Notes under the pieces: generated by a model | Seen by the model: the letters and a program-made list of their open reading frames with translations, nothing else | Databases searched by the model: none | What the model was told of the DNA's origin: nothing | Made by a program: the position numbers and the translations under genes | Assembly (NCBI GenBank): GCA_964537895.1 | Contig: CAZIDK010000001.1 | Coordinates: 233,338-289,593 of the forward strand | Reading direction: 5' to 3' | From: an uncultured Gammaproteobacteria bacterium | GTDB lineage: Bacteria; Patescibacteriota; Microgenomatia; Levybacterales; UBA12049 | Length of the DNA stretch: 56,256 bases | Shown: in pieces, positions 26,382 through 46,261 of the stretch | How the letters are laid out: the number at the start of each line of letters is the position of its first letter | Numbering within the stretch: position 1 is the first letter of the stretch

Positions 26382-26422
26382 ATTTGACAATTATAATCTA
26401 CTCGTGAGATTATCAAAAAGAT

Positions 26423-27106: not shown

Positions 27107-27125
27107 GTTATAATCATTTTATGGA

Positions 27126-27189
27126 CCCCGCATATTCTTACTTTCTCGCGAGGCTTACATCCTCGCCTCGAAAGAGCGAATATACGGGG
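27126..27189. mobile_element. ~65-bp hairpin element, copy A (CCCC..CTTA..RGCG..GGGG family)
   Basis: Homologous to 28176-28240 and 29822-29886; lies between ATGGAC (27121) and ATGGAT (27208). Confidence 0.8.
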
Positions 27190-27207
27190 CAAGAAAATTA
27201 ATAATTT

Positions 27208-28137
27208 ATGGATAAATTAGTAATAATAGACGGTAACGCGATTGTGCATCGCGCATTCCACGCCCTACCTCCGATGAATACTCAAGACGGCCAGTTAACA
27301 AACGCAGTTTATGGTTTTTTTGCCATGCTTTTAAAGCTTTTAAACGACTTAAAACCGGAATATTTAATAGTTTGCTTTGACAGGCCTAAGCCAACTTTTA
27401 GAAAGCAAATGTATGTAGGTTATCAGGCAAAAAGACCGAAAATGTCAGACGATTTAGCTCCGCAAATAGATCTTTTGCACAAAGTATTAGAAAAAGCCAA
27501 AATAGAACATTTTGAAATAGACGGATATGAGGCAGATGACATTATCGGAACAATTGCGACTCAATCCGCCGCAAAAAATCTCCAGGCAATTATCGTCTCC
27601 GGAGACAGGGACATGCTTCAGCTTGTAAATCATAAAGTTCTTGTTTTGGCCCCAATCTCGGGTATTACAAAAATGATGCTTTTCAATGAGGAGAAAGTAA
27701 AAGAAAAATATGGTTTAAAACCATCGCAATTTATAGATTACAAAGCTTTGGTAGGTGACTCTTCGGACAATTACCCGGGAGTTACGGGAATTGGACCAAA
27801 AACAGCCAGTAATCTTCTTAATAAATATAATACTTTTGAAAACCTTTATGAGCATATCTCCGAACTTCCGGAAAATATCGGTTCAAAACTTGCGACGGAT
27901 GCGGAACAAGCTGCTCTTGCCAAAAAACTGGCAACAATCGTTACGGATGCACCTGTAAAAATGGATTTGGAAAAAGCAAAAATAGGAAAGATTGATAAAA
28001 TAGGACTTCTTGAGGCTTTTAAAGAGCTTGGTTTTAAAACTTTAATGGGAAGAGTTCTTGTGCAGGAAGTTCCGGTTAAAAAACTAAACAAGAAAGAGAA
28101 TAAAAAAGAAATTAGAGATCAACTGAATTTATTATGA
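27208..28137 (+). CDS. Stand-alone 5'-3' exonuclease/flap endonuclease (PolA N-terminal domain only)
   Basis: IDGN..HRAFHA, YEADD, SGDRD, LVGDSSDNYPGV.GIGPKTA; stops after 309 aa. Confidence 0.92.
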   Translation: MDKLVIIDGNAIVHRAFHALPPMNTQDGQLTNAVYGFFAMLLKLLNDLKPEYLIVCFDRPKPTFRKQMYVGYQAKRPKMSDDLAPQIDLLHKVLEKAKIEHFEIDGYEADDIIGTIATQSAAKNLQAIIVSGDRDMLQLVNHKVLVLAPISGITKMMLFNEEKVKEKYGLKPSQFIDYKALVGDSSDNYPGVTGIGPKTASNLLNKYNTFENLYEHISELPENIGSKLATDAEQAALAKKLATIVTDAPVKMDLEKAKIGKIDKIGLLEAFKELGFKTLMGRVLVQEVPVKKLNKKENKKEIRDQLNLL

Positions 28138-28175
28138 AAGTCGCAATTGTTCACGATTATATAAAAGAATACGGC

Positions 28176-28240
28176 CCCCGCACAGAACTTACCTTCTTCC
28201 GAGGCCTACGTCCTCGCGGCGAAGGGGCGTTTATGCGGGG
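28176..28240. mobile_element. ~65-bp hairpin element, copy B, between duplicated glycosyltransferase starts
   Basis: ccccgcacagaa-ctta-ccttc..gaagg-ggcg-tttatgcgggg. Confidence 0.8.
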
Positions 28241-28255
28241 TAAAGGAGCAGGGAA

Positions 28256-29398
28256 ATGAGAGTGGCTATCGTTCATGACTACATCAAGGAATTTGGAGGT
28301 GCAGAGAGAGTGCTAGAAAAGCTTCATGAAGTTTTTCCCGATGCGCCTATCTATACAACTGTATATTTACCTTCATTTTTAGGGCCTCATAAAAAAAGAT
28401 TTGCGGGTATGAATATTAAAACTTCGTTTTTGCAGTTTTTTCCGTTTAAAGCAAAACTAATCAGTCCTTTTAGGCTTTTGGCCCCAACTGCATTCAGAAG
28501 CTTTGATTTTTCCGCATATGATGCAATAATTGTTTCCCAAACCGGTTCGTATTTCCCAAATGCGATTAAAAAAAGAGGAGCTAAGCTTATTTGCTATTGC
28601 CATACGCCGCCAAGGTATCTGTATGGGTTTGAAACGGCAAGGGATTGGAAGAAAAATAAGCTTTTTATGGTTTTGGGGATGATTTCGATTCACTTTTTAA
28701 GAATGACAGACTTTAAATCTTCGCAAAATGTAGATTATTTTATTGCAAACTCGGAAAATGTCAGGAAAAGAATACAAAAGTTTTATAGAAGAGATGCGAT
28801 TGTGATTTTTCCGCCTGTAAGTTCAGCAACTAGTAATCTAGCAACTAGCCATCAGTTACAGAACGACGAACTGAATGCTAACTCGCTAGTTGCTAGAGGC
28901 TATTATCTGGCTGGAGGAAGACTTGCAAGGCCAAAGCATATAGATTTAATAGTAGAAACATTTTCAAAACTAAATCTTCCCTTAAAAATATTCGGAAAAG
29001 CATTTGCCGGCTATGGGAAAGAACTTAAAGATAAAGCAAAAGAAAATGTTGAATTTTTAGGCGAAATTACAGATGAAGAAAAATATAAATTTATGAAAGG
29101 AGCAAAAGCATTTGTTTTTGCTTCGGAAGACGAAGATTTTGGCATAACTCCGGCAGAGGCAGAGGCCCTGGGGACGCCGGTTATAGCTTTTGCATCAGGA
29201 GGAACATTGGAAACAGTAGTTGATAATAAAACAGGAATATTTTTTAACGAATTAACAATTGAGTCACTTTCGGAAGCGATAGAAAAGCTTAATAAAACTA
29301 AATTTAAAACAGAAGACATTATTGCTCAAGGGAATAAATTTTCGGAAAGTATTTTTAAATCTAAAATAAATGAATTTGTAGATTCAAAAATAAAATGA
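28256..29398 (+). CDS. Glycosyltransferase family 4
   Basis: VAIVHDY..GGAERV, YCHTPPRY, EDFGITPAEA..GTPVIA. Confidence 0.92.
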   Translation: MRVAIVHDYIKEFGGAERVLEKLHEVFPDAPIYTTVYLPSFLGPHKKRFAGMNIKTSFLQFFPFKAKLISPFRLLAPTAFRSFDFSAYDAIIVSQTGSYFPNAIKKRGAKLICYCHTPPRYLYGFETARDWKKNKLFMVLGMISIHFLRMTDFKSSQNVDYFIANSENVRKRIQKFYRRDAIVIFPPVSSATSNLATSHQLQNDELNANSLVARGYYLAGGRLARPKHIDLIVETFSKLNLPLKIFGKAFAGYGKELKDKAKENVEFLGEITDEEKYKFMKGAKAFVFASEDEDFGITPAEAEALGTPVIAFASGGTLETVVDNKTGIFFNELTIESLSEAIEKLNKTKFKTEDIIAQGNKFSESIFKSKINEFVDSKIK

Positions 29399-29799
29399 AA
29401 TCAAGAATTTGTGTCTCAGCAGTTATAGAAAAAGACGGTAAGATTCTCTTGGGACAGAAGATAAAAGATTTAGGTCCATATCCGAATACGTGGCTTTTGC
29501 CAGGCGGAGGTGTTGAGCAAGGGGAATCTTTAGAAGAGGCAATTAGAAGAGAAATTAAAGAAGAGACCGGCTTAGAGGTGAATAATCTTGAAAAAATAGG
29601 CGTTGATGAAGATGATGAGCCTAATAAGTATGAAGAAATGACGCATTATATTTTTCATTCTTTCAAGGCAAATCCGATAGGGAAACACAAAGACACAGAA
29701 GAATTTCCCACGCTTGGGTGGTTTAAGATAGCTGAACTTAAAAATATCCTTCACGCAAGACCATCAATAAAACTTTTTAAGAAACTGGGGTATTTATAA
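29395..29799 (+). CDS. NUDIX hydrolase
   Basis: PGGGVEQGESLEEAIRREIKEETGL Nudix box. Confidence 0.92.
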   Translation: MKSRICVSAVIEKDGKILLGQKIKDLGPYPNTWLLPGGGVEQGESLEEAIRREIKEETGLEVNNLEKIGVDEDDEPNKYEEMTHYIFHSFKANPIGKHKDTEEFPTLGWFKIAELKNILHARPSIKLFKKLGYL

Positions 29800-29821
29800 T
29801 GCCGGAATTACCTGAAATAGA

Positions 29822-29886
29822 CCCCATACAAAACTTACTTTCTCCCGAGGTCTACGCCCTCGCGTCGAAGGGGCGTTTATACGGGG
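29822..29886. mobile_element. ~65-bp hairpin element, copy C, between duplicated mutM starts
   Basis: ccccatacaaaa-ctta-ctttc..gaagg-ggcg-tttatacgggg. Confidence 0.8.
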
Positions 29887-29917
29887 CAAGAACAATTAAT
29901 ACGAAAGGAGTAATGCT

Positions 29918-30865
29918 ATGCCCGAGCTACCTGAAGTAGAGACAATAAGGCTTGGTTTGCAAAAATATCTTGTCGGGCATAAGATTGAAAATATTGAGGT
30001 TAGAATTCCTAAAATGTTTGCCGGCAGAAAAGAAGATATTTTAGGAGTAAAAATTACTAATATCAAAAGAATAGGTAAAGGATTAATTATCGAATTTGAT
30101 AATGATTATCTTTTAGCAGTGCATTTTAAAATGACCGGCCAGTTGGTTTTTCGGGATAAAAATACTCAAAACCTGGTTCTTTCCAAAAAAGTTGGGGGCG
30201 ATGTCCTGCCAACAAAGTATTCCCATGTTATTTTCACCTTGGATAAAGGAGCTATGCTTTACTATAACGACCTGCGCCGCTTTGGCTGGGTAAAGATTTT
30301 GAAAAAAGATGAACTGATGAAAATGCCATTTTTTAGCGAAATGGGACCGGAACCCTTCGTCAGCAAAGCTTCCTCAGGGCAAGCCGTTTTAACTCTCGAT
30401 AAGTTTAAATCAATACTTTCAAACTCAAGCGTTGCTGTAAAGCCTCTGATAATGGATCAGAAGAGAATAGGAGGAATAGGTAATATCTACGCCAATGATG
30501 CCTTATTCAAAGCCGGAATTGATCCAAGAAGATCTGCAAAGCAGATTACAAAAGAAGAGGCTAAGAAACTGTACAAGGCAATATTTGATGTTTTAAAAAA
30601 AAGTTTGGAATACGGCGGATCATCGGATGAAAATTTTGTTAATGCGCTTGGACAAGAGGGGGCATATCAAAATCATACCTTAGTTTATGGGAAAAAAGGC
30701 CAAAAATGTCCAAAATGTCATTCGACTCTGAGGGACAAGCCCTCAGGCTCAGATCTTCGATTCCGAGATCACTCAGATTCGAGGAACTCGAAGAGCGGCT
30801 CAATAATTGAAAAGATCCAGCTTGGGGGCCGTGGAACCTTTTTTTGCGAGAAGTGTCAGGGGTAG
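29918..30865 (+). CDS. mutM: Formamidopyrimidine-DNA glycosylase
   Basis: MPELPEVET, HFKMTG, DLRRFG, GIGNIYA, Zn finger CPKC...GRGTFFCEKCQ. Confidence 0.96.
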   Translation: MPELPEVETIRLGLQKYLVGHKIENIEVRIPKMFAGRKEDILGVKITNIKRIGKGLIIEFDNDYLLAVHFKMTGQLVFRDKNTQNLVLSKKVGGDVLPTKYSHVIFTLDKGAMLYYNDLRRFGWVKILKKDELMKMPFFSEMGPEPFVSKASSGQAVLTLDKFKSILSNSSVAVKPLIMDQKRIGGIGNIYANDALFKAGIDPRRSAKQITKEEAKKLYKAIFDVLKKSLEYGGSSDENFVNALGQEGAYQNHTLVYGKKGQKCPKCHSTLRDKPSGSDLRFRDHSDSRNSKSGSIIEKIQLGGRGTFFCEKCQG

Positions 30866-30911
30866 TTAATTAATTATTTGGACTTATGATATAATCTTTT
30901 GAGGTAATAGG

Positions 30912-31637: not shown

Positions 31638-31725
31638 ACAAAAGCGGTTTAGGATAATAAACATATTTGATTTATTTGACGATTAATGGTAGTATTAACA
31701 TCTAGCACCACGTGCTAGTTTTTTT

Positions 31726-32427: not shown

Positions 32428-32431
32428 CCTC

Positions 32432-33547: not shown

Positions 33548-33559
33548 CAAAAAGCAGGA
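33525..33559. mobile_element. MITE-like hairpin (YCCTGC...GCAGGR) in the recF 3' end
   Basis: caaa-tcctgc..gcagga-taaa; same ends as 33594-33656 and 44685-44747. Confidence 0.6.
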
Positions 33560-33589
33560 TAAATGATAAAATTAACCAAGGAGGAAAAA

Positions 33590-33660
33590 TAAATCCTGCA
33601 CTTTTATGTTAAAATTTATAAGACTTCATAAGTTCAAGAAGGGAGAAAGTGCAGGGTAAA
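33590..33660. mobile_element. MITE-like element flanked by TAAA duplication
   Basis: taaa-tcctgcacttttatgttaaaattta...ggagaaagtgcaggg-taaa; homologous to 44681-44751. Confidence 0.7.
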
Positions 33661-34529: not shown

Positions 34530-34590
34530 AATGGCGGTGTTATATCAATCTATAGAGAAATTTATTTTATAAAGAGAGGAGGATATATAT

Positions 34591-34794
34591 ATGGGAAGTA
34601 GACAAGAAATAAGGCAAATTATCAATCAGGTAAGAGCCCAAGCAAGGGGAGATTTAGCTAGCGCAGCACCAGTAACCGAAAATACTAGTAGATATGCTTA
34701 TCAAGATAGGCAAAGCCAAGGAATTGTTGATCTCGGAAGAGGCAGAAGGTGTACTAGTGGAGATTTGGCAGGCATAATAGCCTCAAGAAGATAG
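34591..34794 (+). CDS. Small hypothetical protein
   Basis: 67 aa; GAGGAGG RBS and TTGACA upstream. Confidence 0.5.
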   Translation: MGSRQEIRQIINQVRAQARGDLASAAPVTENTSRYAYQDRQSQGIVDLGRGRRCTSGDLAGIIASRR

Positions 34795-34797
34795 AAT

Positions 34798-35073
34798 TTA
34801 TTTTTGTAATTTTTCGGAGAGTTTTGAAAGCTGATAAGTAACAAAAACAGCGAGAACGGTTACTATCAGAGCATAAATTAAAAGAGAAAGTATTCCGCTT
34901 CCACCTGGCAGTAATTTTTTAACATAAGAATTTACAAACTCTTGAATAAGACTGTTCCATGCCAAAGCCGCAACCAAACCAAAACCCGACGTGGCAAGAG
35001 TTAACATCTGTCTTACGAGTTCTATGTGTAGTTTTTTGTCAGTAGCTGTTTCTTTTCGGGAATTCTTCGGCAT
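34798..35073 (-). CDS. Small two-TM protein (DUF5654-like)
   Basis: LATSGFGLVAALAWN..I, YALIVTVLAV. Confidence 0.8.
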   Translation of the reverse strand: MPKNSRKETATDKKLHIELVRQMLTLATSGFGLVAALAWNSLIQEFVNSYVKKLLPGGSGILSLLIYALIVTVLAVFVTYQLSKLSEKLQK

Positions 35074-35088
35074 ATAATGATATAATTA

Positions 35089-35163
35089 TAGCAGAGCAAC
35101 TAGCAACTGGCCAATAGCAATTAGTTAAAACTAGACGCTAGCGGCTGATGGCTAAAGGCTAAA
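35089..35163. repeat. TAGCAAC-type heptamer fold-back
   Basis: agcaact/agcaact/ggccaat/agcaatt then cgctagc/ggctgat/ggctaaa; related to 28825-28902 and 43849-43918. Confidence 0.7.
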
Positions 35164-35165
35164 TT

Positions 35166-36218
35166 ATGTATACTCCTAAGTTTATTATCACTAATAAGAT
35201 TTTAAAAAATATCGGCAGTATTGAAGCCTCAAAGGAAATAATAGATCACGCACCGCTTCTTCCCTATTATGAAAAAGAATTTAAAAAAGACGCAATAGTT
35301 AGAAGCGTCCACTTTGGAACCCACATTGAGGGAAACGAGCTTAATTTATCGCAAGCGGAAAAGGTGCTAAGCGGTCAGGAGATTGCGGCAAGAGACAGGG
35401 ATATTCAGGAGGTTATAAATTACAGAAAAGTAATGGATTATATTGAAAAATCCGAAATTCTAAATTCGAAATCCGAAATCACTGAGGAATTAATAAAACA
35501 CCTACACAAATTAACAGTTGAAAAAATCCTTCCTAAGGAACAGTGCGGGGTTTTCAGAAAAACACAGGTCGTTGTTAAAAATAGTCATACAGGAGAGGTT
35601 TCGTTTAAGCCCCCTATGGCTGTTGCAGTTACTTTTCAGGTAAAAAATCTTTTGGAATTTGTTAATAATTCCGCAGAGGATGACATAAATCCTGTTTTAA
35701 AATCAGGAGCAGTCCATTATGAACTTGTTAAAATTCATCCTTTTTTGGACGGAAACGGACGGGTGGCAAGAGCTTTTGCAACGCTCGTTTTATATAAAGA
35801 AGGCTATGATATCAGAAAATTTTTCTCTTTGGAAGAATATTTCGATTCGGACGCCGGAGCTTATTACGACGCTTTGCAAAGTGTTTCCAAAAGAGAAGGG
35901 GATTTAACAGTTTGGCTTGAGTATTTTTCTTTAGGACTTTCAATAGAGCTTTCTAAAATAAGAGAGAAGGTCGAAAATATCTCAATTGACGCAAAATTAA
36001 AAGAAAAATTGGGCGGAAAACCTTTGCTTTTATCAAACAGGCAGTTAAAAATAATTGAATATATTCAAAAAACAGGGTTTTTGCAAAATCAGGCATTTGA
36101 ACAATTGTTTCCAATGGTCTCCGAAGACACAATTTTAAATGAGCTGAAATCTCTTGTTAAATCGGAAATTGTAAAAAAACACGGCGTAACCAAAGGCGCG
36201 AAATACATAATGGCATGA
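35166..36218 (+). CDS. Fic family protein with C-terminal HTH
   Basis: HPFLDGNGRVAR canonical Fic motif; THIEGN. Confidence 0.92.
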   Translation: MYTPKFIITNKILKNIGSIEASKEIIDHAPLLPYYEKEFKKDAIVRSVHFGTHIEGNELNLSQAEKVLSGQEIAARDRDIQEVINYRKVMDYIEKSEILNSKSEITEELIKHLHKLTVEKILPKEQCGVFRKTQVVVKNSHTGEVSFKPPMAVAVTFQVKNLLEFVNNSAEDDINPVLKSGAVHYELVKIHPFLDGNGRVARAFATLVLYKEGYDIRKFFSLEEYFDSDAGAYYDALQSVSKREGDLTVWLEYFSLGLSIELSKIREKVENISIDAKLKEKLGGKPLLLSNRQLKIIEYIQKTGFLQNQAFEQLFPMVSEDTILNELKSLVKSEIVKKHGVTKGAKYIMA

Positions 36219-36236
36219 AATAATTTTCCTTTGAAT

Positions 36237-36646
36237 CCCCTCCTTGGGGGGAGAGGATTAAGGTGAGGGGATTAAAATGAAAAACTACTTAAAAAAGATA
36301 TCTTTTGCTCGTCAATTAAGACAAAATCAGACTGATGTAGAACAATTATTGTGGAAATACCTAAGAAATCGACGATTTGATGGTGTAAAATTTAGACGTC
36401 AACATCCCATTGATCCATACATTGTTGATTTTATTTGCTTGGAGAAGAAATTAATTATAGAGCTTGATGGTGGAAATCATAATACGGAAGAAGGAAAGAA
36501 AAATGATAAAGAAAGATCACTTTATTTACAAAAGAATAATTATAAACTATTAAGATTTTGGAATAATGAACTTATTACTGATCTGGATGAAGTATTATTA
36601 ATAATTCATCACGCCCTCACCCTGCCCCTCTCCCGAGAGGAGAGGG
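36237..36646. mobile_element. DUF559 endonuclease cassette bounded by inverted palindromic repeats
   Basis: cccctccttggggggagaggattaaggtgagggg (36237-36270) is inverted relative to ccctcaccctgcccctctcccgagaggagaggg (36614-36646). Confidence 0.75.
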
Positions 36647-36669
36647 TTAAGAGGAAGCAAATTTTATGA
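36277..36669 (+). CDS. DUF559 / Vsr-like endonuclease
   Basis: ARQLRQNQT..E..LW, KFRRQHPI..YIVDF, IELDGG.H, LRFWN. Confidence 0.92.
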   Translation: MKNYLKKISFARQLRQNQTDVEQLLWKYLRNRRFDGVKFRRQHPIDPYIVDFICLEKKLIIELDGGNHNTEEGKKNDKERSLYLQKNNYKLLRFWNNELITDLDEVLLIIHHALTLPLSREERVKRKQIL

Positions 36670-39515
36670 AGTTTAAAGAATTATCAGAATATTTCGAAAA
36701 ATTGGAGAAAATTTCATCCAGGCTTGCCTTAATTGATATTCTTTCCGAACTTTTCAAAAAAACTCCAAAAGAAGAAATTGAAAAAACCATTTATTTAATA
36801 CAAGGCCGTCTCGCGCCGTTTTTTGTCCCGATTGAGATAGGAATGGCAGAAAAAACCGTTGCTGTCTCTATTGCCAATGCTTATGATTTGACAAGAGAAG
36901 AAGTTCTTAAACTTTATCAAAAACTTGGGGATATGGGGCTGGCCAGTTACGAACTGGCCAGAAATTCGAAATCCGTCCATTCGACAAGCTCAGGACGAAA
37001 TTCGAAATTATCGGTATCGGAAGTCTTTGATGTACTTAATGAAATTGCAAATACAAAAGGAGAAGGAACGGTTGAAAAAAGACAGACGTTGCTATCAAAT
37101 CTTCTCAAAGAGCTTGATCCTATTTCCGCAAAACATCTGGTTAGAATTCCTTTGGGCAATACGCGTTTGGGAATCGGCGACCCGACAGTTTTAGATGCAT
37201 TGGCAACTGCAAAATTGGGAGATAAGAGCAACAGAAAACTTTTAGAAGGCGCTTATAACAGAACTTCGGATTTAGGCTTAATTGCAAAAACTTTGTGGGA
37301 AAAGGGATTAACAGGCGTTGAAAAACTTGAAGTAAGGGTTGGTTCTCCAATACGAAGCGAACTTTGCGAAAGGCTTCCAACTCCAGAAAAAGTTATTGAA
37401 AAAATGTCCCTCGACTCCGCTCGGGATAAAATTGGCGTTGATGTCCAGTATAAATACGATGGTTTTCGTTGCGTAGGAGGATATACGCCTATCTACACAA
37501 AAAGAAAAGGAATTACCGTAATGCGGGATCTTCAAGTTGGAGATGAAGTGCTTACTAAAAGCGGCAGATTTAAGAAAGTGCTTGCCAAGCGTAAAAGAAT
37601 GATTAGGAAAAAAGAGCGCCTTTTTGTATTTAAGACATATTTAGGGGAAGAGATTAAAGTCTCAGAAGGGCATCCAGTACTAGCTTTAGTCGATGGAAAA
37701 GAGCAGTGGAAATTTATTGAAAATATTAAATCAGGCGATGAAGTTGTTTTTCCATTACCTATTTTCCCTCCAAGCAATCCTCATCCTGCGCCTAAAAAAC
37801 TTGAGCTACAAACAATTTCAGGATATAAAAAAACATTTGTTTTAAATGAGGATTTCTATAGATTTATGGGTTTTTGGATAGGCGACGGATTTACAAACGA
37901 TTTTCATAATACAGAAAGAGTAGGTTTAACATTTAATAACAGAACTGAAAAGAAACTCGCTGATGAATACGAAAAAATTATTAATACAACACTACAAGTT
38001 TCTTCTATTTCTAGAAATATTCACAATGGCGGATTGAATTTATATTGGAGAGACGAACCCCTCAAGCATTGGCTTTCAACTTATTTTAGAAGAGAATGGC
38101 AAGGTAAAATGTTGCCGGAATGGTTTTCTCATGTTACAAAAAAACAGTTCATGGCGTTTTTAACCGGCTGGATTGAATCTGATGGCCATACCGATAAAGA
38201 CGGATTTACAAAAATTGTTACAAAAGAACGTGATTTAGCTGCATTTGCGCAACTTATTGCATTGTCTTTTGGAATAATAATGGGACTGCGTTACATCCGT
38301 ATAAAAAATAAAACATACTACTCGCTGCTGATTCCCAAAACACAAAGAAAAGCAAGAATTATCGGACAAAAAATATATGTAAAAGTCCTAAGAAATGCAG
38401 AATTTAAAAATAGGGATGAGAGAACACAACTTTATGATATTCAGATTGAGGATGATGAAAGTTTTTGCATACCAATGGCAACATTGCATAATTGTCAAAT
38501 TCATAAAAACGGAGATGAAATTAGGATGTTTTCAAGAAATTTAGAAGAAATGACGCATATGTTTCCCGAGTTAACAGTAGCCGCAAGAAAACAAATCAAA
38601 GCCGAAAATGTAATTTTGGATACAGAGGCCCTTGCTTATAACCCGGAGTCTGAAGAGTTTCTGCCTTTTCAGGAAACTACCAAAAGAAGAAGAAAACACA
38701 ACATTTTAGAAATGGCCGAAAAGCTCCCCCTTAAAGCTTTTGTTTTTGACATTTTGTATAAAGACGGAAAACAGCTTTTGGATGAGCCTCTTTATAAAAG
38801 AATGGAAATTTTAAAAGAAGTAATTTCGGAAGACGGTGTTTTAATCAGAACAAAAAATCAGACCGTAAAAGACGCAAAGACACTGGGAATTTTATTGGAA
38901 GACGCTATTTCCAAAGGCCTGGAGGGATTGGTTGTAAAACGCTTAGAAAGCCCCTATGAAGCCGGTGGGCGCAACTTTAATTGGGTAAAGCTGAAAAGAC
39001 ATTCAAGCGGAGAATTAAACGATACAATCGACTGTGTAATCCTAGGCTATATTACAGGAAAAGGTAAAAGAGCGGCATTTGGCGCTGGAGCTTTATTAGT
39101 TGGCGTTTACGACGATAAAAAAGATGAATTTGTAACCGTTTCTAAAATCGGTACCGGACTTACGGATGAAGAGTGGCGAGAGGTTCATAAAAGAGCAGAC
39201 ATAATAAAACTTGAAAGTAAACCGGCAAGAGTTAACTCACAAATTATTCCGTCTGTTTGGATAAAACCGGAGATTGTGATTGAGGTTTTGGCAGACGAGA
39301 TAACCCGTTCTCCGATTCATACCGCCGGTGCTTCGACAAGTTCAGCATCCCATTCGGGTCTGAGCTCCTCAGGGTTGAAGACTGGCGAAAAAGAGCCGGG
39401 GTACGCGTTAAGATTTCCGCGGTTAGTTTCATTCAGAAATTTTGATAAAAAAGCGGAGGACTCAACTTCGGTTAAAGAATTAATCGATATGTACAAGCAG
39501 CAAAAACTAAGTTAA
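36666..39515 (+). CDS. lig: ATP-dependent DNA ligase (archaeal/eukaryotic-like) containing an intein
   Basis: KYDGFR motif I, ILDTE, FDILY, EGLVVK, WVKLK, LRFPR. Confidence 0.92.
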   Translation: MKFKELSEYFEKLEKISSRLALIDILSELFKKTPKEEIEKTIYLIQGRLAPFFVPIEIGMAEKTVAVSIANAYDLTREEVLKLYQKLGDMGLASYELARNSKSVHSTSSGRNSKLSVSEVFDVLNEIANTKGEGTVEKRQTLLSNLLKELDPISAKHLVRIPLGNTRLGIGDPTVLDALATAKLGDKSNRKLLEGAYNRTSDLGLIAKTLWEKGLTGVEKLEVRVGSPIRSELCERLPTPEKVIEKMSLDSARDKIGVDVQYKYDGFRCVGGYTPIYTKRKGITVMRDLQVGDEVLTKSGRFKKVLAKRKRMIRKKERLFVFKTYLGEEIKVSEGHPVLALVDGKEQWKFIENIKSGDEVVFPLPIFPPSNPHPAPKKLELQTISGYKKTFVLNEDFYRFMGFWIGDGFTNDFHNTERVGLTFNNRTEKKLADEYEKIINTTLQVSSISRNIHNGGLNLYWRDEPLKHWLSTYFRREWQGKMLPEWFSHVTKKQFMAFLTGWIESDGHTDKDGFTKIVTKERDLAAFAQLIALSFGIIMGLRYIRIKNKTYYSLLIPKTQRKARIIGQKIYVKVLRNAEFKNRDERTQLYDIQIEDDESFCIPMATLHNCQIHKNGDEIRMFSRNLEEMTHMFPELTVAARKQIKAENVILDTEALAYNPESEEFLPFQETTKRRRKHNILEMAEKLPLKAFVFDILYKDGKQLLDEPLYKRMEILKEVISEDGVLIRTKNQTVKDAKTLGILLEDAISKGLEGLVVKRLESPYEAGGRNFNWVKLKRHSSGELNDTIDCVILGYITGKGKRAAFGAGALLVGVYDDKKDEFVTVSKIGTGLTDEEWREVHKRADIIKLESKPARVNSQIIPSVWIKPEIVIEVLADEITRSPIHTAGASTSSASHSGLSSSGLKTGEKEPGYALRFPRLVSFRNFDKKAEDSTSVKELIDMYKQQKLS
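37470..38492 (+). mobile_element. Intein (341 aa) with LAGLIDADG homing endonuclease
   Basis: Starts C(VGGYT); block B VSEGHPVL; FMGFWIGDG and FLTGWIESDG endonuclease motifs; ends YDIQIE..TLHN followed by +1 Cys (CQIHK). Confidence 0.93.
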
Positions 39516-39518
39516 ATA

Positions 39519-39809
39519 TTACTTAACAACTTCTCCAACCAACCCAGCAACCACATTTCTTATTCTTGCCAATGGTCTTCTTTGTTCGCCAACTGGTTGC
39601 TGTCCTTGGGCTCTTTCCATCTCTTCTCTTTTCATCTCTTCTGCTACTAGTTCACCGGTAAAAGCATTTATATCATTAACAATTGGTATTTTTTCACCGT
39701 TTGGTAGCCTTCTCATTTTGGGGTCACCACGATGAAATAAGCTAAATCTTGGTTTTTCTGAAGAATCTGTGATGTTTCCCATATCTCTGTCTCCTTCCAC
39801 AAGTGTCAT
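39519..39809 (-). CDS. Hypothetical protein
   Basis: 96-aa ORF in intergenic gap. Confidence 0.5.
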   Translation of the reverse strand: MTLVEGDRDMGNITDSSEKPRFSLFHRGDPKMRRLPNGEKIPIVNDINAFTGELVAEEMKREEMERAQGQQPVGEQRRPLARIRNVVAGLVGEVVK

Positions 39810-39902
39810 AAATCCTATAAGAACATTTTTGCACTATAAGACCTGTTTGTCAGGTTATATATTTAGCTTAACATGTATTTCTGTTTTGTTTCAAGAGGGA
39901 TT

Positions 39903-40937
39903 TTATTTAAAATAGTCTTTTTTAGATATTCTTTCGATTAATTGATTAAAAAACTGAATCTGAAGAGTTAAAAGATGCTTAACTGCTTCATTAGTTTCAT
40001 TTCTTGAGCCTGTATCTATCAATATTGCCCCCGTTGTTCTCTCAAGAAGCATTAAGTGTATGTTTTTGATTGCCTTTTCATCATTTTTGACAACCGGAAT
40101 CTGATAGAAATTATCAAACCATTTTTTAACAAATTCAACATACTTTTCAAGAGTGAATATCTTATCTTCTATAGCTTCAAGGCACCAATGTAGGTTGAAT
40201 ACAAGATCGTAATACTCTGGTCTGTATGTCCAATAAAGATTAGAAAGAAGGACAAACTCTTTGCCGTTATAAAGAATATCTTTTGAGCTTAAATGTCCAT
40301 GCGAAAACACCATTTTGCTATCCATGTTTTTAGACATAAAATCTTTATAAATATTTACAATATTTTCGATTTGTTTACGGGAAATGGTTTTTTCTAATAA
40401 TCCTTTATGATCTGATATTTTTTTCCAGGTTTCTACGCGTTTCAGGACAAAATTTTTGGTGCTAGTTTCCTCATCTGTTTTTACGAAAGGAGAGTTGATG
40501 CATTTAGTTTTATATTCCTCATAAAAATCACAGAACAATTTTATTTGGTTAGAGCTTGGAAAAGGCATTTCATGAATTTTAGGGTAGGGGACAAATTCTG
40601 CTACTAAAAATCCAAATCCATCTTTTTCGTTCCATTTTTGGTAAGCATAAAGCTCGGGTAATCTAATAATTTTACTTTTATTCTGTTTTTTAAAGCCAAT
40701 TAAGATGTCTACTTCATCGGTTTCCGGATGAAGACCCTGAAGTTTTAGAACTGCAGGTTTGCCTTTGTAAATTCCTTTATAGATTATGCTCCCGATTTTA
40801 TCGGGGTCAAAAATCATTCCCTTAAAAAGAACCGCTTGTGGAGTAAATCCTGTTTTAGAGACTACAATTTCCAAAACCTCTTTTTCTCTTTTGGAGAAAT
40901 CTTCTTGGGTAAAATATTTCTCAACGATTTTTATCAT
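39903..40937 (-). CDS. Kinase-like / aminoglycoside-phosphotransferase-fold protein
   Basis: AVLKLQG, IRLPELY, VFSHGHLSSKDI (Brenner-like motif with D to H), W..RPEYYDL. Confidence 0.6.
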   Translation of the reverse strand: MIKIVEKYFTQEDFSKREKEVLEIVVSKTGFTPQAVLFKGMIFDPDKIGSIIYKGIYKGKPAVLKLQGLHPETDEVDILIGFKKQNKSKIIRLPELYAYQKWNEKDGFGFLVAEFVPYPKIHEMPFPSSNQIKLFCDFYEEYKTKCINSPFVKTDEETSTKNFVLKRVETWKKISDHKGLLEKTISRKQIENIVNIYKDFMSKNMDSKMVFSHGHLSSKDILYNGKEFVLLSNLYWTYRPEYYDLVFNLHWCLEAIEDKIFTLEKYVEFVKKWFDNFYQIPVVKNDEKAIKNIHLMLLERTTGAILIDTGSRNETNEAVKHLLTLQIQFFNQLIERISKKDYFK

Positions 40938-41044
40938 AGATTATATAAATTATAACAAATTAGTTTATGATAAAATGACTCTATGCCCGCTTAATCTTAG
41001 TCCGATGTTCTTCGGACAGCGATTTAGCGCCGGACAATCCGTAT

Positions 41045-42439
41045 ATGGAATATGTAGCAGATTTACATTTACATTCAAAATATAGCCGGGCAGTAAGTAA
41101 AGACATGGTTTTGCCGACAATGGCTTTTTGGGCCAAGAAAAAAGGAATTAGTATTCTTTCAACCGGAGACTGGACTCACCCTTTGTGGCTTAGAGAAATA
41201 AAAGATCAGCTTGAAGAGGCGAGCGAAGGCCTCTTTAAACTCTCCGCCAAAGGCGGATCCGCCTCGGGCGGAAAATCTCAAAATCAGGAAAAAGAAGTCC
41301 TATTTCTTCTTTCCGTTGAGATTTCCAGCATTTATTCTCAAGGAGGAAGAGGACACAGGATACATAATCTGGTTTTTTCACCAAGTTTTGAAACAGCAGA
41401 AAAAATAAACAATGAACTTGTAAAAAGAGGCTGTAATTTGGCCTCGGATGGACGTCCGATAATAGGATTTTCTTCGATCCAGCTCTTAGAACTCATAAAG
41501 TCTATAGACGAGAACACGCTTCTTATTCCGTGTCATGCCTGGACGCCGTGGTTTTCCTTATACGGGTCAAACTCCGGATTTGATTCTATAGACGAAGCTT
41601 TTGGCGAGTATGGAAAATACATTTACGGGGTTGAAACCGGTCTTTCAAGCGATCCTTTTATGAACTGGCAAATCCCGGAGCTTAAAAACCGTTCGATTTT
41701 GTCTTTTTCCGACGCCCATTCTCCGATGAAAATGGGACGTGAATGCACCGTCTTTATTCATAAAGACGGAAATCCGAAATCCGAAATCCGAAATCCGAAA
41801 ATTACATACGACGATATAATTTCGGCAATAAAAAAAGAAGATTCGGCAAAGTTTAAAATAGGTTACACAATTGAGTTTTATCCCGAAGAAGGAAAATATC
41901 ATTACAATGGGCACAGAAACTGCCAAGTTGTACAAACGCCTCAAGAAACAAAAGAGAAGGGGACAATTTGTCCGGCTTGCCACAGGCCTTTAACGGTTGG
42001 AGTTATGGATAGAGTCCAAGAGCTGGCAAGAGGTAATGATTGGTTCGGTCAGGAAACCGTAAAACTTAACCCAAACGGGGTTAAATGGATACTTGACAAA
42101 ACAGGTAACCACCCGCCTTTTGTAAAACTTGTTCAGCTTGTTCAGATTATCGCAGAAAGCTTATCTTCAACAGTACCAAGTTTAAAAGTTGTAAATATGT
42201 ATAACGATGTTTGCAATAAATTTGGTTCCGAACTTGAAGTTTTACTCAAAACGCCGATTAAAGAAATTCAAAAAGAGGCAGGCGAAAGGGTAGCAGAGGG
42301 AGTTGAAAAGGTCAGAAAAGGAGAGATTGTTATTTTGCCCGGATTTGACGGACAGTACGGAATTGTAAAAATTTGGGACGATAAAAAGATAACCGAAAAA
42401 CAAACGAATCTGGTGAATCAGCTCGGTCTTGATTTTTAA
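41045..42439 (+). CDS. Endonuclease Q family (PHP domain + Zn finger)
   Basis: ADLHLHSKYSRA, TGDWTHP, HAWTPW, ETGLSSD, SDAHS, GKYH..GHRNC, CPAC, PGFDGQYG. Confidence 0.85.
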   Translation: MEYVADLHLHSKYSRAVSKDMVLPTMAFWAKKKGISILSTGDWTHPLWLREIKDQLEEASEGLFKLSAKGGSASGGKSQNQEKEVLFLLSVEISSIYSQGGRGHRIHNLVFSPSFETAEKINNELVKRGCNLASDGRPIIGFSSIQLLELIKSIDENTLLIPCHAWTPWFSLYGSNSGFDSIDEAFGEYGKYIYGVETGLSSDPFMNWQIPELKNRSILSFSDAHSPMKMGRECTVFIHKDGNPKSEIRNPKITYDDIISAIKKEDSAKFKIGYTIEFYPEEGKYHYNGHRNCQVVQTPQETKEKGTICPACHRPLTVGVMDRVQELARGNDWFGQETVKLNPNGVKWILDKTGNHPPFVKLVQLVQIIAESLSSTVPSLKVVNMYNDVCNKFGSELEVLLKTPIKEIQKEAGERVAEGVEKVRKGEIVILPGFDGQYGIVKIWDDKKITEKQTNLVNQLGLDF

Positions 42440-42596
42440 TTGCGGTTGGTTTACCATCAAGTTATATAAGGAACCCGCCTAAGTTTTCCGTTCGCCTTTC
42501 CCGCCTGCAATGCTTTGCATAGCAATGCGGGCAGGTCAGTACTATTCGTACACGGCTCACGGAGCGCTTCATCGGCGGGCAGAAGGGAGGTGAAAT

Positions 42597-43037
42597 ATGG
42601 CAGAAGCAAAAAACATGAATCTTATGGTAACATTAGAGGAAACGTTTGCTAAACTTCCTCCTTTGTCACCAAGTGTCCGCGAAGTTATCGTAACAATTAC
42701 TCCCTGGCTCGCATTAATTTTTGGAGTCTTAGGAGTTTTGGCATCATTATCAGCTTTTGGTCTCTCTGCAGCTTTTGCTCCGGCAGTTGCATTGGGAGGC
42801 GGAGTTGGGCTTGCAACAGGTCTTATGGTGGCAGCAGTTTTAGGCCTTGCTCAAAGCGCATTGATGCTCGTTGCAACACCAAATCTTTTCAAAAGGAAAG
42901 CGTTTGGTTGGACACTTTTATTTTGGTCGGAAGTATTAGCAGTAGTTGCGGCAGGAGTATCATTTTCCGTTGTAGGAGTACTCGTTGCTGTTCTTTCTTT
43001 CTATTTCTTATTCCAAATAAAATCTTATTATAAATAA
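42597..43037 (+). CDS. Membrane protein
   Basis: Four hydrophobic segments, YFLFQIKSYY end, GGGAGGTG RBS. Confidence 0.75.
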   Translation: MAEAKNMNLMVTLEETFAKLPPLSPSVREVIVTITPWLALIFGVLGVLASLSAFGLSAAFAPAVALGGGVGLATGLMVAAVLGLAQSALMLVATPNLFKRKAFGWTLLFWSEVLAVVAAGVSFSVVGVLVAVLSFYFLFQIKSYYK

Positions 43038-43166
43038 GAATGGAGCTAATTTATCCAGCACCTTTTTAAAACTCCGCGGCTTGCCGCGGGGGTATTGTTC
43101 TTGATTTTTCCCACGTGAGCTTAATGCTCCGTGGGGGGAAAGGTACTGGATTTATAAAGGGCCATT

Positions 43167-43195
43167 CCTTTAAAAGGGTGGCTCTTTTGTTTTGG
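43167..43195 (+). terminator. Probable intrinsic terminator (3' part of hairpin starting ~43158)
   Basis: agggccattcct-ttaa-aagggtggctct followed by tttgtttt. Confidence 0.5.
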
Positions 43196-43238
43196 CGTCG
43201 CCCAGAGGGCTTTGCCCGGCGGGTGTATAATGTGTGGG

Positions 43239-43865
43239 ATGTTTGAAAACAGAGAAGAAGCGGCCTTAAAACTTTGTTTAAAACTTAAAAGCGCTGTTAA
43301 AGGTAAGGATATTGTTGTTATAGCCCTGGTAAGAGGCGGAGTAATTTTAGGTAAAATTATCGCAGACAATTTTAAAGCTCCCTTAGATATTATTGTTATT
43401 AAAAAAATAGGCGCGCCTGGGAATAATGAACTTGCAATTGGAGCAGTCGGTCCTAAAAACACAGCTTATTGGAACAATGATTTATGTAAAGTTTTGGGTT
43501 TATCTCAAAAAGAAAAATTAGAGTTAAAAAAAGAAAAAGAGAGACAAAGAAGAGAACAGGAAAAACTATTTAAAAGCCGCCATATTGACTTTAGAAAAAA
43601 ATCGGTTATCCTTGTTGATGACGGAATCGCAACGGGCGCAACCGCAATAGTTGCTGCCAAATTTCTTAAAAAGAGTAAAGGAAAAAAAGTAATTTTGGCA
43701 GTTCCGGTAATTTCAAAAGATACATTAATTAATATTAAAGAATATTTTGATATGGTGTTAAGTTTGAAAATTGTTAAAGATTTCTCTGCGGTTGGAGAGT
43801 TTTACAAAAGTTTTCCTCAAGTAGAAAATGAGCAAGTTATTAAAATTTTAGCAACTAGCCACTAG
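43239..43865 (+). CDS. Phosphoribosyltransferase-family protein
   Basis: MFENREEA, RGGV, KKIGAPGN.ELAIGA, VILVDDGIATGAT; ATG 7 nt after TGTATAAT. Confidence 0.88.
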   Translation: MFENREEAALKLCLKLKSAVKGKDIVVIALVRGGVILGKIIADNFKAPLDIIVIKKIGAPGNNELAIGAVGPKNTAYWNNDLCKVLGLSQKEKLELKKEKERQRREQEKLFKSRHIDFRKKSVILVDDGIATGATAIVAAKFLKKSKGKKVILAVPVISKDTLINIKEYFDMVLSLKIVKDFSAVGEFYKSFPQVENEQVIKILATSH

Positions 43866-44059
43866 CACTTAGCAATCAGTTATAATAAATTAACTAGTTG
43901 CTATTTGCTGAAGGCTAAATTTATGAAGCTTATTGTAGGACTGGTCCATCCTAATCTTTCCGTTCGATCGCGTTCGACGCGACTCACGGAGCCCCGCCTG
44001 CATTGCCTTTCGGCAAAAGCCGATGGCGGGCAGGGATTTAAGGAGGATCTCGCATCATT

Positions 44060-44683
44060 ATGAAGTTGATAGTTGGGCTCGGTAATCCGGGATTAAAATA
44101 CGAACGTACAAGACATAACCTGGGTTTTGTTGCTGTTGAACATTTTTTAAAAGACTTCGCGCCGGTAAAAGATGGAACTTGGGAAGATTCAAAAAAATTT
44201 AAAAGCGAGATTGCAGAAATTACTTGGCAGCCGAAAGCCTCGTTACCGCAAAAAGTAATTCTCTGTAAGCCCAAAACCTATATGAATAACTCCGGAATGG
44301 CTGTTAAAATAATTAAAGATTTTTATAAAATTCACCCATCGGATATTTGGATCATTCACGATGATGTTGATTTACCTTTAGGCAGCATGAAAATAAGACT
44401 TGGGGGAGCATCTGCGGGGCATAAGGGCGTTGATTCAATAATTAACACTCTTGGTACGGACAAGTTTTGGAGATTTAGATTAGGTATTGGAAAGCCGAAA
44501 CAAAATTTAAGTGAAAAGCACCAGAGCTTTGTTTTTAAAGGTGTTGATAACTATGTTTTGGGGGAATTAATGGGCGGAGATTGGAGCAGGGCAAAAACTC
44601 TTATTAAAAAATCGGTAAAAGCAATTGAAACAGCGCTTGAAAAGGATCTTACAGTTGCCATGAACAGGTTTAATACAAAATAA
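44060..44683 (+). CDS. pth: Peptidyl-tRNA hydrolase
   Basis: MKLIVGLGNPG, TRHNLGF, KPKTYMN.SG, HDDVDL, GHKG, RLGIG. Confidence 0.96.
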   Translation: MKLIVGLGNPGLKYERTRHNLGFVAVEHFLKDFAPVKDGTWEDSKKFKSEIAEITWQPKASLPQKVILCKPKTYMNNSGMAVKIIKDFYKIHPSDIWIIHDDVDLPLGSMKIRLGGASAGHKGVDSIINTLGTDKFWRFRLGIGKPKQNLSEKHQSFVFKGVDNYVLGELMGGDWSRAKTLIKKSVKAIETALEKDLTVAMNRFNTK

Positions 44684-44751
44684 ACCCTGCGCTTTTATGT
44701 TAAAATTTAGAAAAATTTCAAAAATTATTGAAGGAGAAGGTGCAAGATAAA
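44681..44751. mobile_element. MITE-like element flanked by TAAA duplication
   Basis: taaa-ccctgcgcttttatgttaaaattta...ggagaaggtgcaaga-taaa. Confidence 0.7.
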
Positions 44752-45017
44752 TGCAGAAAGTATCGCAAATTCTTAAAAACTTCGATCCTGTAAAGGATAA
44801 GTATATTTCCAGGGATTTTCAGGCATTCGGAATATGGCTTGCCGAAGAGATGGACGATTACAAAAATAGGTCAATGTATATAAAACTTGCAAAAGTAAAT
44901 CACAGGAGCATTCTGGAAAAATCCCTGTCTTTTGTTAAAGACAGCAATGCCGATAATAAAGTTGCTCTTTTTTTGTGGAAATTAAAACAGCTTAAAAACG
45001 AAGTAAAAACAAAATAA
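44751..45017 (+). CDS. Small basic hypothetical protein
   Basis: FQAFGIWLAEEM..MYIKLAK..ILEKSLSFVKDS..LFLWKL. Confidence 0.75.
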   Translation: MQKVSQILKNFDPVKDKYISRDFQAFGIWLAEEMDDYKNRSMYIKLAKVNHRSILEKSLSFVKDSNADNKVALFLWKLKQLKNEVKTK

Positions 45018-45545
45018 ATGACATCCCGAAAATATTTCTCCATTTTTGTATTAATACTTTCTTTTGTTTTATCCATAGGAGTTTTTGTTTTAAGAGACAA
45101 TTTTAAGGAAGCCACCAACTTGGGGCTTTTGGGAATATTTTTAATCAATTTGGCATCAAGCTCTACTTTTTTTGTCTCCGGACCGGCATTTCTTACGGTC
45201 ATTGCCGGAGGCTCAATATACCCGCCCCTTCTTGTTGCCCTTGTCGCGTCTTTGGGAGCGGCAGCAGGAGACATGGTTTCTTTTTTTCTTGGATTCTCCG
45301 GAAGAAGCTTGACAGAGCATAAGCTTAAGAAAAAATTATGGTTTAGGGTGCTTGAGGATTTATTTAAAGCATACGGCACGATTATTGTTCTTACCCTTGC
45401 CATTATTCCTAATCCCGTTTTCGACGCAATAGGCCTTGTGGCCGGAGTTTTAGGGTTTAAGCCGCTTAAGTTTTTTGCTCTTATGCTTATAGGACGCTTT
45501 GCAAGATTTGTTATTTTAGCTCTTATTGGAGCAAGATTCTATTAA
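45018..45545 (+). CDS. VTT/DedA (SNARE-associated) membrane protein
   Basis: GAAAGDMVSFFLG, IPNPVFDAIGLVAG, GRFARF. Confidence 0.85.
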   Translation: MTSRKYFSIFVLILSFVLSIGVFVLRDNFKEATNLGLLGIFLINLASSSTFFVSGPAFLTVIAGGSIYPPLLVALVASLGAAAGDMVSFFLGFSGRSLTEHKLKKKLWFRVLEDLFKAYGTIIVLTLAIIPNPVFDAIGLVAGVLGFKPLKFFALMLIGRFARFVILALIGARFY

Positions 45546-45594
45546 TGATAAAGGATGAAGGATTAGGGATTAAAGTAAAGATTAAGGATAAATT

Positions 45595-45963
45595 ATGAGT
45601 GATGAGAAGCCAAGAGATATTAAAGAAAGATCATTTACATTTGCGGTAAGAGTTTTAAAGATGACAAAATATCTATCCAAAAACTCAATTAATAATGTTT
45701 TGATAAATCAGGTAATACGTTCAGCAACCTCAATTGGGGCTAACATAGAAGAGGCACAGGGAGCTCATACCAAAAGTGATTTTGCTCATTGTATGAATAT
45801 AGCCAAAAAAGAAGCAAGGGAAACATTCTATTGGCTAAAATTAATAAATGAAATGAACCATACTATTTCAGAAAGGTTAAATCTTTTAGTAATAGAAAAT
45901 GAAGAAATCATTAAAATTCTTACAACAATAGTTAAGAAATCTAATCCGAGAAATTTTAATTAA
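45595..45963 (+). CDS. Four-helix bundle protein (23S rRNA IVS-protein / Avd-like family)
   Basis: RSFTFAVRV, QVIRSATSIGANIEEA, IAKKEARETFYWL; flanked by heptamer repeats. Confidence 0.92.
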   Translation: MSDEKPRDIKERSFTFAVRVLKMTKYLSKNSINNVLINQVIRSATSIGANIEEAQGAHTKSDFAHCMNIAKKEARETFYWLKLINEMNHTISERLNLLVIENEEIIKILTTIVKKSNPRNFN

Positions 45964-45994
45964 TCACTAACCATTTATCATTAATAATTATAAT

Positions 45995-46261
45995 ATGCAG
46001 GCAAGAATTTATGTTTTGGGTTTTGTTCAGGGTGTTGGATTCAGGCAATTTATTAAGAAAAACGCTCGCTCTCTTGGGCTTAAGGGATTTGTTAGAAATC
46101 TTCCCGACGGAAGGGTAGAGATAGTCGCAAAGAGCGCAAAGGAACAAATAGAAAAACTTATTGATCTTTGTGAAAAAGGACCGTTTTTCTCGGAAGTAAA
46201 GTCAGTTGGGGTTAATTTCGAAGAGGAAGAAGAGTTTGAGGGATTTGAAATACTTCGCTGA
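45995..46261 (+). CDS. acyP: Acylphosphatase
   Basis: GFVQGVGFR, GFVRNLPDGRVE, GP. Confidence 0.92.
   Translation: MQARIYVLGFVQGVGFRQFIKKNARSLGLKGFVRNLPDGRVEIVAKSAKEQIEKLIDLCEKGPFFSEVKSVGVNFEEEEEFEGFEILR

Follow-up and report, generated by a model that had tools for sequence, protein, structure and literature searches.

How does a gene come to carry two copies of its own first codons with a hairpin-forming insert between them? The question is raised by pth, the gene for peptidyl-tRNA hydrolase, in a stretch of 56,256 nucleotides (nt) of contig CAZIDK010000001.1 (the window). The window belongs to a genome of the Candidate Phyla Radiation (CPR) with a size of 791,528 bp, 37% GC, and a completeness of 97.55%, here called the source genome or G000. 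ATG AAG CTT ATT GTA GGA CTG at 43923-43943 and ATG AAG TTG ATA GTT GGG CTC at 44060-44080 both encode MKLIVGL. As an earlier note on this DNA had claimed, five of the seven codons differ synonymously; 6 of the 21 bases are different and no residue is changed. After MKLIVGL, the upstream copy continues with VHP and the downstream copy with GNP. The insert between the two starts is 116 nt long and ORF-less (ORF, open reading frame); its only frame is the read-through of the leader that begins at the upstream ATG. With a probability of roughly 0.55, the insert is considered to be a small, gene-specific cassette that replaces a gene end and moves horizontally among Patescibacteria.

The locus is composed of the following parts.

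43923..43943, + strand: displaced old pth start, ATG and six codons, where G001, a genome of the same genus, has its sole pth start
43923..44063, + strand: leader frame of 46 codons from the old ATG, crossing the entire cassette; its TGA overlaps the new ATG (ATGA)
43944..43966, + strand: left half of the cassette, with the outer-left arm at 43944-43958 and the inner-left arm at 43959-43966 (alignment A1)
43967..43992, + strand: loop at 43967-43982, specific to G000, and inner-right arm at 43983-43992 (alignment A1)
43993..44034, + strand: nested mini-palindrome of 42 nt (the cccgcc..ggcggg pair), missing in the other 10 cassettes of A1 and in contig X6
44035..44049, + strand: outer-right arm with the Shine-Dalgarno sequence AAGGAGG (44040-44046), pairing with 43944-43958
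44050..44059, + strand: unpaired tail from the hairpin to the new ATG, conserved across the cassette family in A1
44060..44683, + strand: pth, peptidyl-tRNA hydrolase, 207 amino acids; codons 1-7 are the replacement copy

In the ORF list, the leader-frame ORF spans 43905..44063. Alignment A1 consists of 11 homologous pth cassettes, in which the outer-left arm, inner arm, loop, inner arm, outer-right arm, a conserved tail of 10-18 nt, and the new ATG follow each other in this order. The outer and inner arms pair, giving the terminal inverted repeat or palindrome seen in MITEs (miniature inverted-repeat transposable elements). The stem is compensated: 10 of the 18 consensus pairs are changed on both sides in at least one sequence of A1. 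In the subfamily of G000, the outer-right arm is the Shine-Dalgarno site (the strong AAGGAGG of the earlier note), and in the minimum-energy RNA fold this site is paired with the left arm. No promoter was found inside the cassette. An Rfam search of 26000-46000 with E up to 1 returned only two chance-level matches elsewhere and none at the pth cassette.

The earlier note had placed a different palindrome family between the two starts. Its hairpins are present, and both tttccgttcg and ctcacggagc are found again in 42484-42565, as it had stated; the structure is, however, one composite cassette with a later nested insertion and not simply another family. The mini-palindrome at 43993-44034 is a later arrival in the cassette. 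It has partial matches on contigs C7, C5, and C6 of the source genome, and by eye it resembles an insert at 42497-42532 and another one nested in a uvrA copy of the palindrome family D1, described below. Mini-palindromes of 33-42 nt that look alike are observed in the loops of larger palindromes in a "Russian doll" arrangement, at 42497-42532, 43993-44034, and C2:76652-76757 of G000.

Filled and empty alleles at pth

G001, whose Pth is 98% identical, has a single pth start at the position of the old start of G000 and no cassette. The ctaaattt that precedes the old ATG is common to both genomes. Contig X7 also represents an empty allele, in which 85 nt replace 43846-44057 between the upstream gene and the pth ATG. 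Contig X6, from another study, carries the twin-start allele without the nested mini-palindrome; its loop is the usual loop of the family, and 35 other letters stand between the equivalents of 43966 and 44035. A split pth in G019 was rejected as a candidate: the apparent split comes from two contigs whose ends overlap, and the allele is an empty one.

Homologous cassettes at the same pth codon were observed at 3 of the 30 loci of relatives (G000, G027, and G010), in nine other records of GTDB, and in five metagenome contigs. The same site of a conserved gene is therefore filled in distant lineages with empty alleles between them, as is the case for homing-type elements, and the recurrence of the cassette in other genera and families bears out the suggestion of the earlier note that start replacement reaches essential genes as a general class. 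Among close relatives, the cassette is thus both gained and lost. When the GTDB species set was searched for a pth-like start, 66-126 nt, and a canonical pth start, 16 records were found, all of which are genuine twin starts by inspection (16/16). The pattern scans covered gaps of 66-126 nt, and larger inserts fall outside this range. The earlier note proposed to look between the twin starts for larger inserts with a gene of the GIY-YIG, HNH, LAGLIDADG, DUF559, or four-helix type; at 29 loci, the 1.5 kb upstream of pth contained no such insert. The stop codon of the leader overlaps the new ATG as ATGA in G000, L046, L048, L050, and L052, and at both junctions of G010. G010 (L010 1335-1530) shows three pth starts: MLLIVGLG, followed by a palindrome cassette, MKLIIGLGNP, followed by a 32-nt insert with AAGGAG, and the real start.

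The arms and tail of the cassette are 87-94% identical between hosts in which the silent sites of pth are saturated, with 25-37% identity at fourfold sites and 54-76% identity of the Pth proteins. The correlation between cassette identity and host protein identity is weak (r = 0.27, 55 pairs). The high identity, together with the patchy distribution and the empty alleles within the same genus, favours transfer between lineages as the probable history. A local exchange is also implied at the source locus. Between G000 and G001, the pth DNA is 95-100% identical over codons 8-207 and 76% over codons 1-7. By eye, over ~150 nt, the upstream gene is nearly identical up to its C-terminal tail, and the differences are more numerous in the intergenic DNA and in the old copy, so that the entire twin-start segment looks as if it was swapped into G000. 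That the new copy always travels with the hairpin is only partly supported.

Unrelated inserts also produce twin starts at pth, in L040, L044, and five low-GC records of metagenome-assembled genomes (MAGs). The low-GC records L039, L041, L043, L047, and L049 (~30% GC), whose record titles are Candidatus Onthoplasma, Lachnospiraceae, and Clostridia, show a second kind of pth twin start. Here a 17-codon old copy ends in a stop codon made at the junction, and a hairpin of another sequence, a stretch rich in T, and a ribosome site follow. Within each genome, the ribosome site and codons are duplicated in identical or nearly identical form, and in L041 two such units precede the real pth gene.

Duplicated ends at other genes

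Twin ends were screened for in the source genome at 172 GC-rich, strongly folding islands, by comparing the peptides of the left flank with those of the right flank, with 343 permuted pairs as the control. A glycosyltransferase gene (GT) scored 67, trxB 46-49, fpg 42, and pth 41, whereas the permuted maximum was 32. The earlier note was to be abandoned if empty alleles did not exist and the similarity was not significant; empty alleles do exist, and the pth score exceeds all permuted scores.

GT, fpg, and trxB carry a palindrome of another family, D1, which is unrelated to the pth cassette. Two unrelated palindrome families in G000 thus share one layout, in agreement with the earlier proposal that start replacement is not tied to one repeat sequence. 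The D1 site of trxB lies just outside the window, and the following sites are inside it.

28134..28297, + strand: GT with D1; old start 28134-28174, D1 and spacer with Shine-Dalgarno 28175-28255, new start 28256
29799..29940, + strand: fpg with D1; old start 29799-29821, D1 and spacer 29822-29917, new start 29918
27121..27210, + strand: short form; ATGGA, D1 and spacer, and, at 27208, the genuine start of the gene for the 5'-3' exonuclease

The duplications at D1 in G000 are 41 nt long in GT, 23 nt in fpg, 29 nt in trxB, and 23 nt in a tRNA gene. The short forms, in which "ATG plus two bases" is duplicated, are those of the exonuclease gene and uvrA. The sites in GT and fpg are filled in G000 and empty in both G001 and G002. 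In the exonuclease gene and trxB, G000 and G001 both have the filled site and G002 the empty one, and the tRNA site is filled in G000 and G002. At this tRNA site (C2:155480-155770 of G000), the 23 nt that run from the T-loop until three bases beyond the 3' end recur on the other side of the element with one mismatch, and the copy in G002 contains an extra nested insert of 19 nt.

The D1 core was found in 33 of the 201 genomes of the order, with one match in the reversed-pattern control. Among 28 copies with readable flanks in other genomes, nine have duplicated N-terminal codons scoring >35, four are short forms with "ATG plus 1-2 nt", and six duplicate a -35-like word. The nine long duplications include the GT junction as in G000 (G141), the fpg junction as in G000 (G007), a ychF-like start (three genomes of two families), uvrA, and a gene for an MreB-like protein. 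Within a gene-specific lineage, D1 and the new ATG are separated by similar spacers. The recurrence of D1 at the same GT and fpg junctions and at further genes, as well as the unrelated inserts at pth, extends the general class proposed in the earlier note beyond one cassette.

Two intergenic D1 copies in G000 have a duplicated -35-like word. The intergenic subfamily comprises C4:46700-46990 and C3:89000-89290 of G000, L217, L225, L232, L237, L239, and L241. The duplicated word in its flanks is CTTGA or CTTTAA; on the right, it follows an additional small hairpin and is filled out to a TTGACA-like box. It looks as if promoters were replaced at these copies just as gene starts are.

In metagenomes, the core of the pth cassette family is common. 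At least 120 stretches were found, and 92 non-redundant copies with full flanks were analysed; the counts given here hold among the matches listed. The permuted control for this set reached a maximum of 53 because it contained pairs of loci from the same gene, and a reversed-flank control was used instead. Duplicated gene ends were present in 15 of the 92 copies, versus 2 of 92 in the control. They include pth four to five times, galU starts twice, and the start of a PHP-domain gene, as well as gene 3' ends with stop codons, two of which are ychF-like and three from another gene. Where a core-family copy stands before a pth start, an old copy accompanies it in every case (5/5), and none is solo. 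Many other copies lie just upstream of a start and have a tail with a Shine-Dalgarno sequence, as at 42484.

In the metagenome contigs L105, L148, L095, L071, L094, and L168, the core lies between two copies of the last 8-13 codons of a gene and its stop codon, which differ mostly at silent sites. At these loci, it is the 3' end of the gene that is replaced.

Origin of the copies and rival explanations

The divergence between old and new copies is informative for their origin. Pooled over 26 twin pairs, the proportion of synonymous differences (pS) is 0.82 and that of non-synonymous differences (pN) is 0.09, with a ratio of 0.116 (bootstrap 0.08-0.16). The nine pth pairs that were found without requiring an old copy give a pN/pS of 0.105. 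In a simulation starting from an identical start with a freely drifting old copy, the median pN/pS was 0.64 and the minimum was 0.44. The contrast between 0.116 and at least 0.44 suggests that the two copies acquired most of their divergence as functional gene ends of different lineages. Another possibility is that cassette-free alleles continually renew the old copy.

Comparison with the relatives shows the copies at single genes. In GT, 28 bases of the old copy are identical to the native sequence of G001 and G002, whereas seven of nine codons are changed in the new copy. In fpg, G001 resembles the old copy closely, and the divergence of the new copy extends to about codon 15. In trxB, G002 differs from both copies at 6 positions. 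Decay is observed in old copies of pth, where 6 of 11 have a residue change; all 11 new copies read MKLI[IV]GL.

From these features, a route by which the gene would remain expressed can be proposed. The cassette consists of a long hairpin of ~75 nt, a 10-nt tail, its own ATG, and the first seven pth codons, placed after codon 7 of the resident gene; in G000, it carries the 42-nt nested passenger in addition. Translation would begin at the resident promoter, ribosome site, and old ATG, and then traverse the hairpin. The ribosomes crossing it would free the new Shine-Dalgarno sequence in the 3' arm and restart at ATGA. Pth would be made by termination-reinitiation, by unmasking of the new site, or by both, and its output would stay under host control. 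Such a restart would make the insertion nearly harmless.

To spread, the cassette would be taken up with foreign DNA and enter a naive allele by homologous recombination or break repair, and we infer that this is the most likely route. The incoming DNA would comprise the old copy, the cassette, the new copy, and the gene body. Its left arm of homology would be short and provided by the old copy, and its right arm would be the gene body, so that no conserved gene order would be needed. The new copy, diverged at silent sites, would compete less for pairing with the start of the target. A broader reading, proposed here only tentatively, is that such elements are nuclease-free "homing" cassettes. 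The displaced gene end would be a portable homology arm by which the same gene could be entered in any lineage, whatever its neighbours. The gene would be restored by the built-in ribosome site, start codon, and silent-site-diverged codons, and host control would be kept through a translationally coupled leader.

Several observations weigh against a mobile cassette of this kind. The two copies are identical or nearly so in L042 (0/21 differences), L054 (1/21), and L044 (32 identical bases); for these three, in-place duplication or gene conversion fits better than a foreign origin, or the events are young. The finding of pairs by peptide similarity is biased to low pN, and the twin pairs are non-independent because the pth cassettes are related by descent. 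At pth in G000, the twin copies differ from G001 at 4 and 5 of the 21 bases, which makes it impossible to distinguish the native copy. The high conservation of the cassette could reflect constraint rather than transfer. The fraction of identical new-start codons is only modestly higher among cassette hosts (0.44) than among empty alleles (0.31-0.34). The restart mechanism is proposed from the sequence; the RNA fold of 43905-44095 is no better than shuffles (z = -1.38), and 4 of the 10 class-1 leader frames (G000 and nine GTDB records) stop short of the new ATG by 18-55 nt. The cassettes have no linked nuclease, recombinase, or transposase. In a sample of G010 of 301,575 bases, none of the 53 islands has twin ends, and the layout is therefore uncommon per genome. 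A single high score in this sample was rejected as a natural zinc-ribbon repeat.

The rival that survives best, although it is unlikely, is an ordinary non-autonomous transposon, either a MITE or similar to REPINs (hairpins of paired REP, or repetitive extragenic palindromic, sequences), that duplicates 5-42 nt of its target, with the copies diverging in place. The identical or near-identical copies in L042, L054, L044, and the low-GC records are what it would produce. The families are multi-copy, the left flank is directly duplicated to some extent at 19 of the 28 D1 copies (9 long, 4 with ATG plus 1-2 nt, and 6 -35-like), and one transposase gene of the Y1 type, similar to REP-associated tyrosine transposases (RAYT-like), is present in the genome. 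The synonymous bias of 0.116, however, contrasts with the 0.44 or more expected from a drifting old copy. The duplication is not of the fixed short length of MITE target sites; it measures 5, 21-23, 29, and 41 nt within or between families, ranging from 5 to 41 nt within one family, yet it is constant within a gene-specific lineage. Moreover, it begins at an ATG or ends at a tRNA 3' end and not at arbitrary positions, a variable spacer separates the palindrome from the second copy, and the pth cassette is single-copy in G000.

Profile matches in G000 are the single Y1_Tnp gene and two tyrosine recombinases, none linked to cassettes, and reverse transcriptase and TnpB-type profiles gave no matches. 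The sole Y1 gene (C3:14646-14987; region C3:14440-15110) is flanked by, and contains, short hairpin copies. By eye, the hairpin flanking it is a different sequence from those of the pth cassette and D1, unlike the arrangement in which a RAYT gene is flanked by the same REP sequence as the mobile copies. The insert does not have the build of an integrase-dependent element: it has no ORF, and the pth copies of G000 differ next to the junction, sharing only ATGAAG. Nor does it have that of a homing endonuclease gene, group I intron, or intein, having only 116 nt, the leader frame, and no Rfam match. The R-box of attC was not seen by eye at the cassette ends; no formal attC or IntI search was made.

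It is improbable that the twin starts are scars of independent, homology-facilitated illegitimate recombination during transfer, in which the palindrome of the donor merely stood upstream of the gene. Such joins would explain the foreign-looking new copies and the microhomologies GG, GGCCC, and CC seen by eye at left junctions, and among the matches listed many core-family copies do lie just upstream of a start with a ribosome site. They would not explain the same junction in at least 17 pth cases and in the GT, fpg, and ychF lineages across genera, or spacers and tails that are conserved within lineages. The solo arrangement expected of a donor was found at pth in 0 of 8 unselected cases among the matches listed.

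Somewhat less probable again is a host regulatory leader, that is, an upstream mini-ORF and hairpin that control pth translation and are not mobile DNA. The variation in presence or absence between genomes of the same genus, and the same layout at unrelated genes, gene 3' ends, and a tRNA, are hard to reconcile with it, although the leader frame does end at the new ATG, the Shine-Dalgarno sequence is sequestered in a conserved hairpin, and, by our own reasoning, pth is a plausible target of short-ORF control. The cassette has no Rfam match. No terminator-like site was called in 43700-44250, and none at L041; neither leader is therefore regarded as a leader-peptide attenuator.

Chance resemblance or an assembly artefact is refuted by the pth score of 41 versus a permuted maximum of 32, by the 16 of 16 pattern matches that are genuine, and by the twin-start allele in contigs from another study, even though a crude count of start-codon pairs with 6/7 identical residues (2 observed versus 2-7 in controls) is not above control, because each internal start codon was counted as a gene start.

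Known systems and neighbouring elements

The mobile cassette favoured here shares features with several known systems. In kind, the cassettes are rated as MITE-like and homing-like. MITEs such as Correia elements are likewise non-autonomous, hairpin-forming, and multi-copy, and can alter the expression of neighbouring genes; unlike the cassettes, they have short fixed target duplications and mostly intergenic sites. The terms "start codon" and "Shine" are both absent from the available text of a 2024 review of MITEs (PMC10969869).

Palindromic elements of Rickettsia are also small and GC-rich, enter essential genes without lethality, and come and go between relatives. They are read through as extra protein loops, whereas the pth cassette leaves the protein unchanged because the new ribosome site, the new ATG, and the copy of the displaced codons would restart the gene. 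There are also integrative elements, with integrase-less derivatives, that bring along a substitute for the end of a gene, such as the 3' end of a tRNA at an att site. They resemble the cassettes in the direct repeats of a gene end that flank the insert and in the body-side copy that restores the gene, and one D1 copy duplicates a tRNA end. The cassette differs from them in its size of ~100 nt, the lack of an integrase, the absence of an identical core at pth of G000, and the use of one family for many genes.

The T4 gene 60/mobA cassette is placed among the homing-type elements. Homing elements resemble the pth cassette in their conserved target stretches, recurrence at the same site, self-neutralised insertion, and target copies beside the insert that are different at silent sites. 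They include group I introns, inteins, free-standing homing endonuclease genes, and the intronless homing of T4-like phages (PMC2988022, PMC2790892). The cassette has no endonuclease gene, splicing, or bypass; duplication and restart would restore the function.

The passages on the REP2 repeats of Neisseria and the IR repeats of Borrelia in Delihas 2011 (PMC3184786) describe a ribosome site and an ATG upstream of genes and present the repeats as upstream regulatory modules with a promoter. The pth cassette, compared with REP2 by description only, has a ribosome site and an ATG, and no promoter was found inside it. Those passages contain no displaced start, no duplicated recoded codons, no insertion inside a coding sequence, and no cross-genus recurrence at one gene. 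In the literature covered, which did not extend to supplementary files, no description of such cassettes was found. None of the systems compared here unites a hairpin that lacks an ORF, a ribosome site and start inside the element, the duplication of a gene end, and repeated occurrence at a single codon of an essential gene.

Nuclease-free homing, if true, would give selfish DNA a third means of residing inside essential genes, in addition to splicing and in-frame read-through. The first codons of essential genes would be accessible to small mobile DNA, which would remain harmless there in a specific and testable way. If the spread relies on host recombination only, the cassettes would provide a simple model of enzyme-less, non-coding selfish DNA that targets conserved genes. 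In CPR genomes, gene callers and start predictors will misplace starts or report spurious short ORFs at such loci. The twin copies are a natural marker of DNA exchange between lineages of uncultivated bacteria, and the hairpin with its ATGA restart would represent a compact module of translational coupling that is potentially reusable.

One further feature of the core family lies near pth in the window.

42466..42596, + strand: solo member of the core family, directly 5' of a start at 42597; its tail contains GGGAGGTGA, and there is no twin start

This solo element is present in G001 too, without its nested mini-palindrome (42497-42532).

Other small elements are observed around these loci. 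A hairpin element, D2 (33593-33659 and 44684-44750), lies between the ribosome site of a gene and its ATG and brings a replacement ribosome site; the copy at 33593 is missing in G001, whose native ribosome site directly precedes the ATG. A four-helix-bundle gene of 122 amino acids (45595-45963; segment 45546-45994) is an insertion relative to G001, located between a stop codon and the next ATG. It has no twin start, and a 70%-identical copy is present elsewhere in G001. Low-complexity, ctag-rich stretches at 43850-43915, 35095-35130, and C1:291080-291170 of G000 cover the C-terminal tails of genes and the DNA just upstream of the old pth and trxB starts. These stretches are alike between loci and different between G000 and G001.

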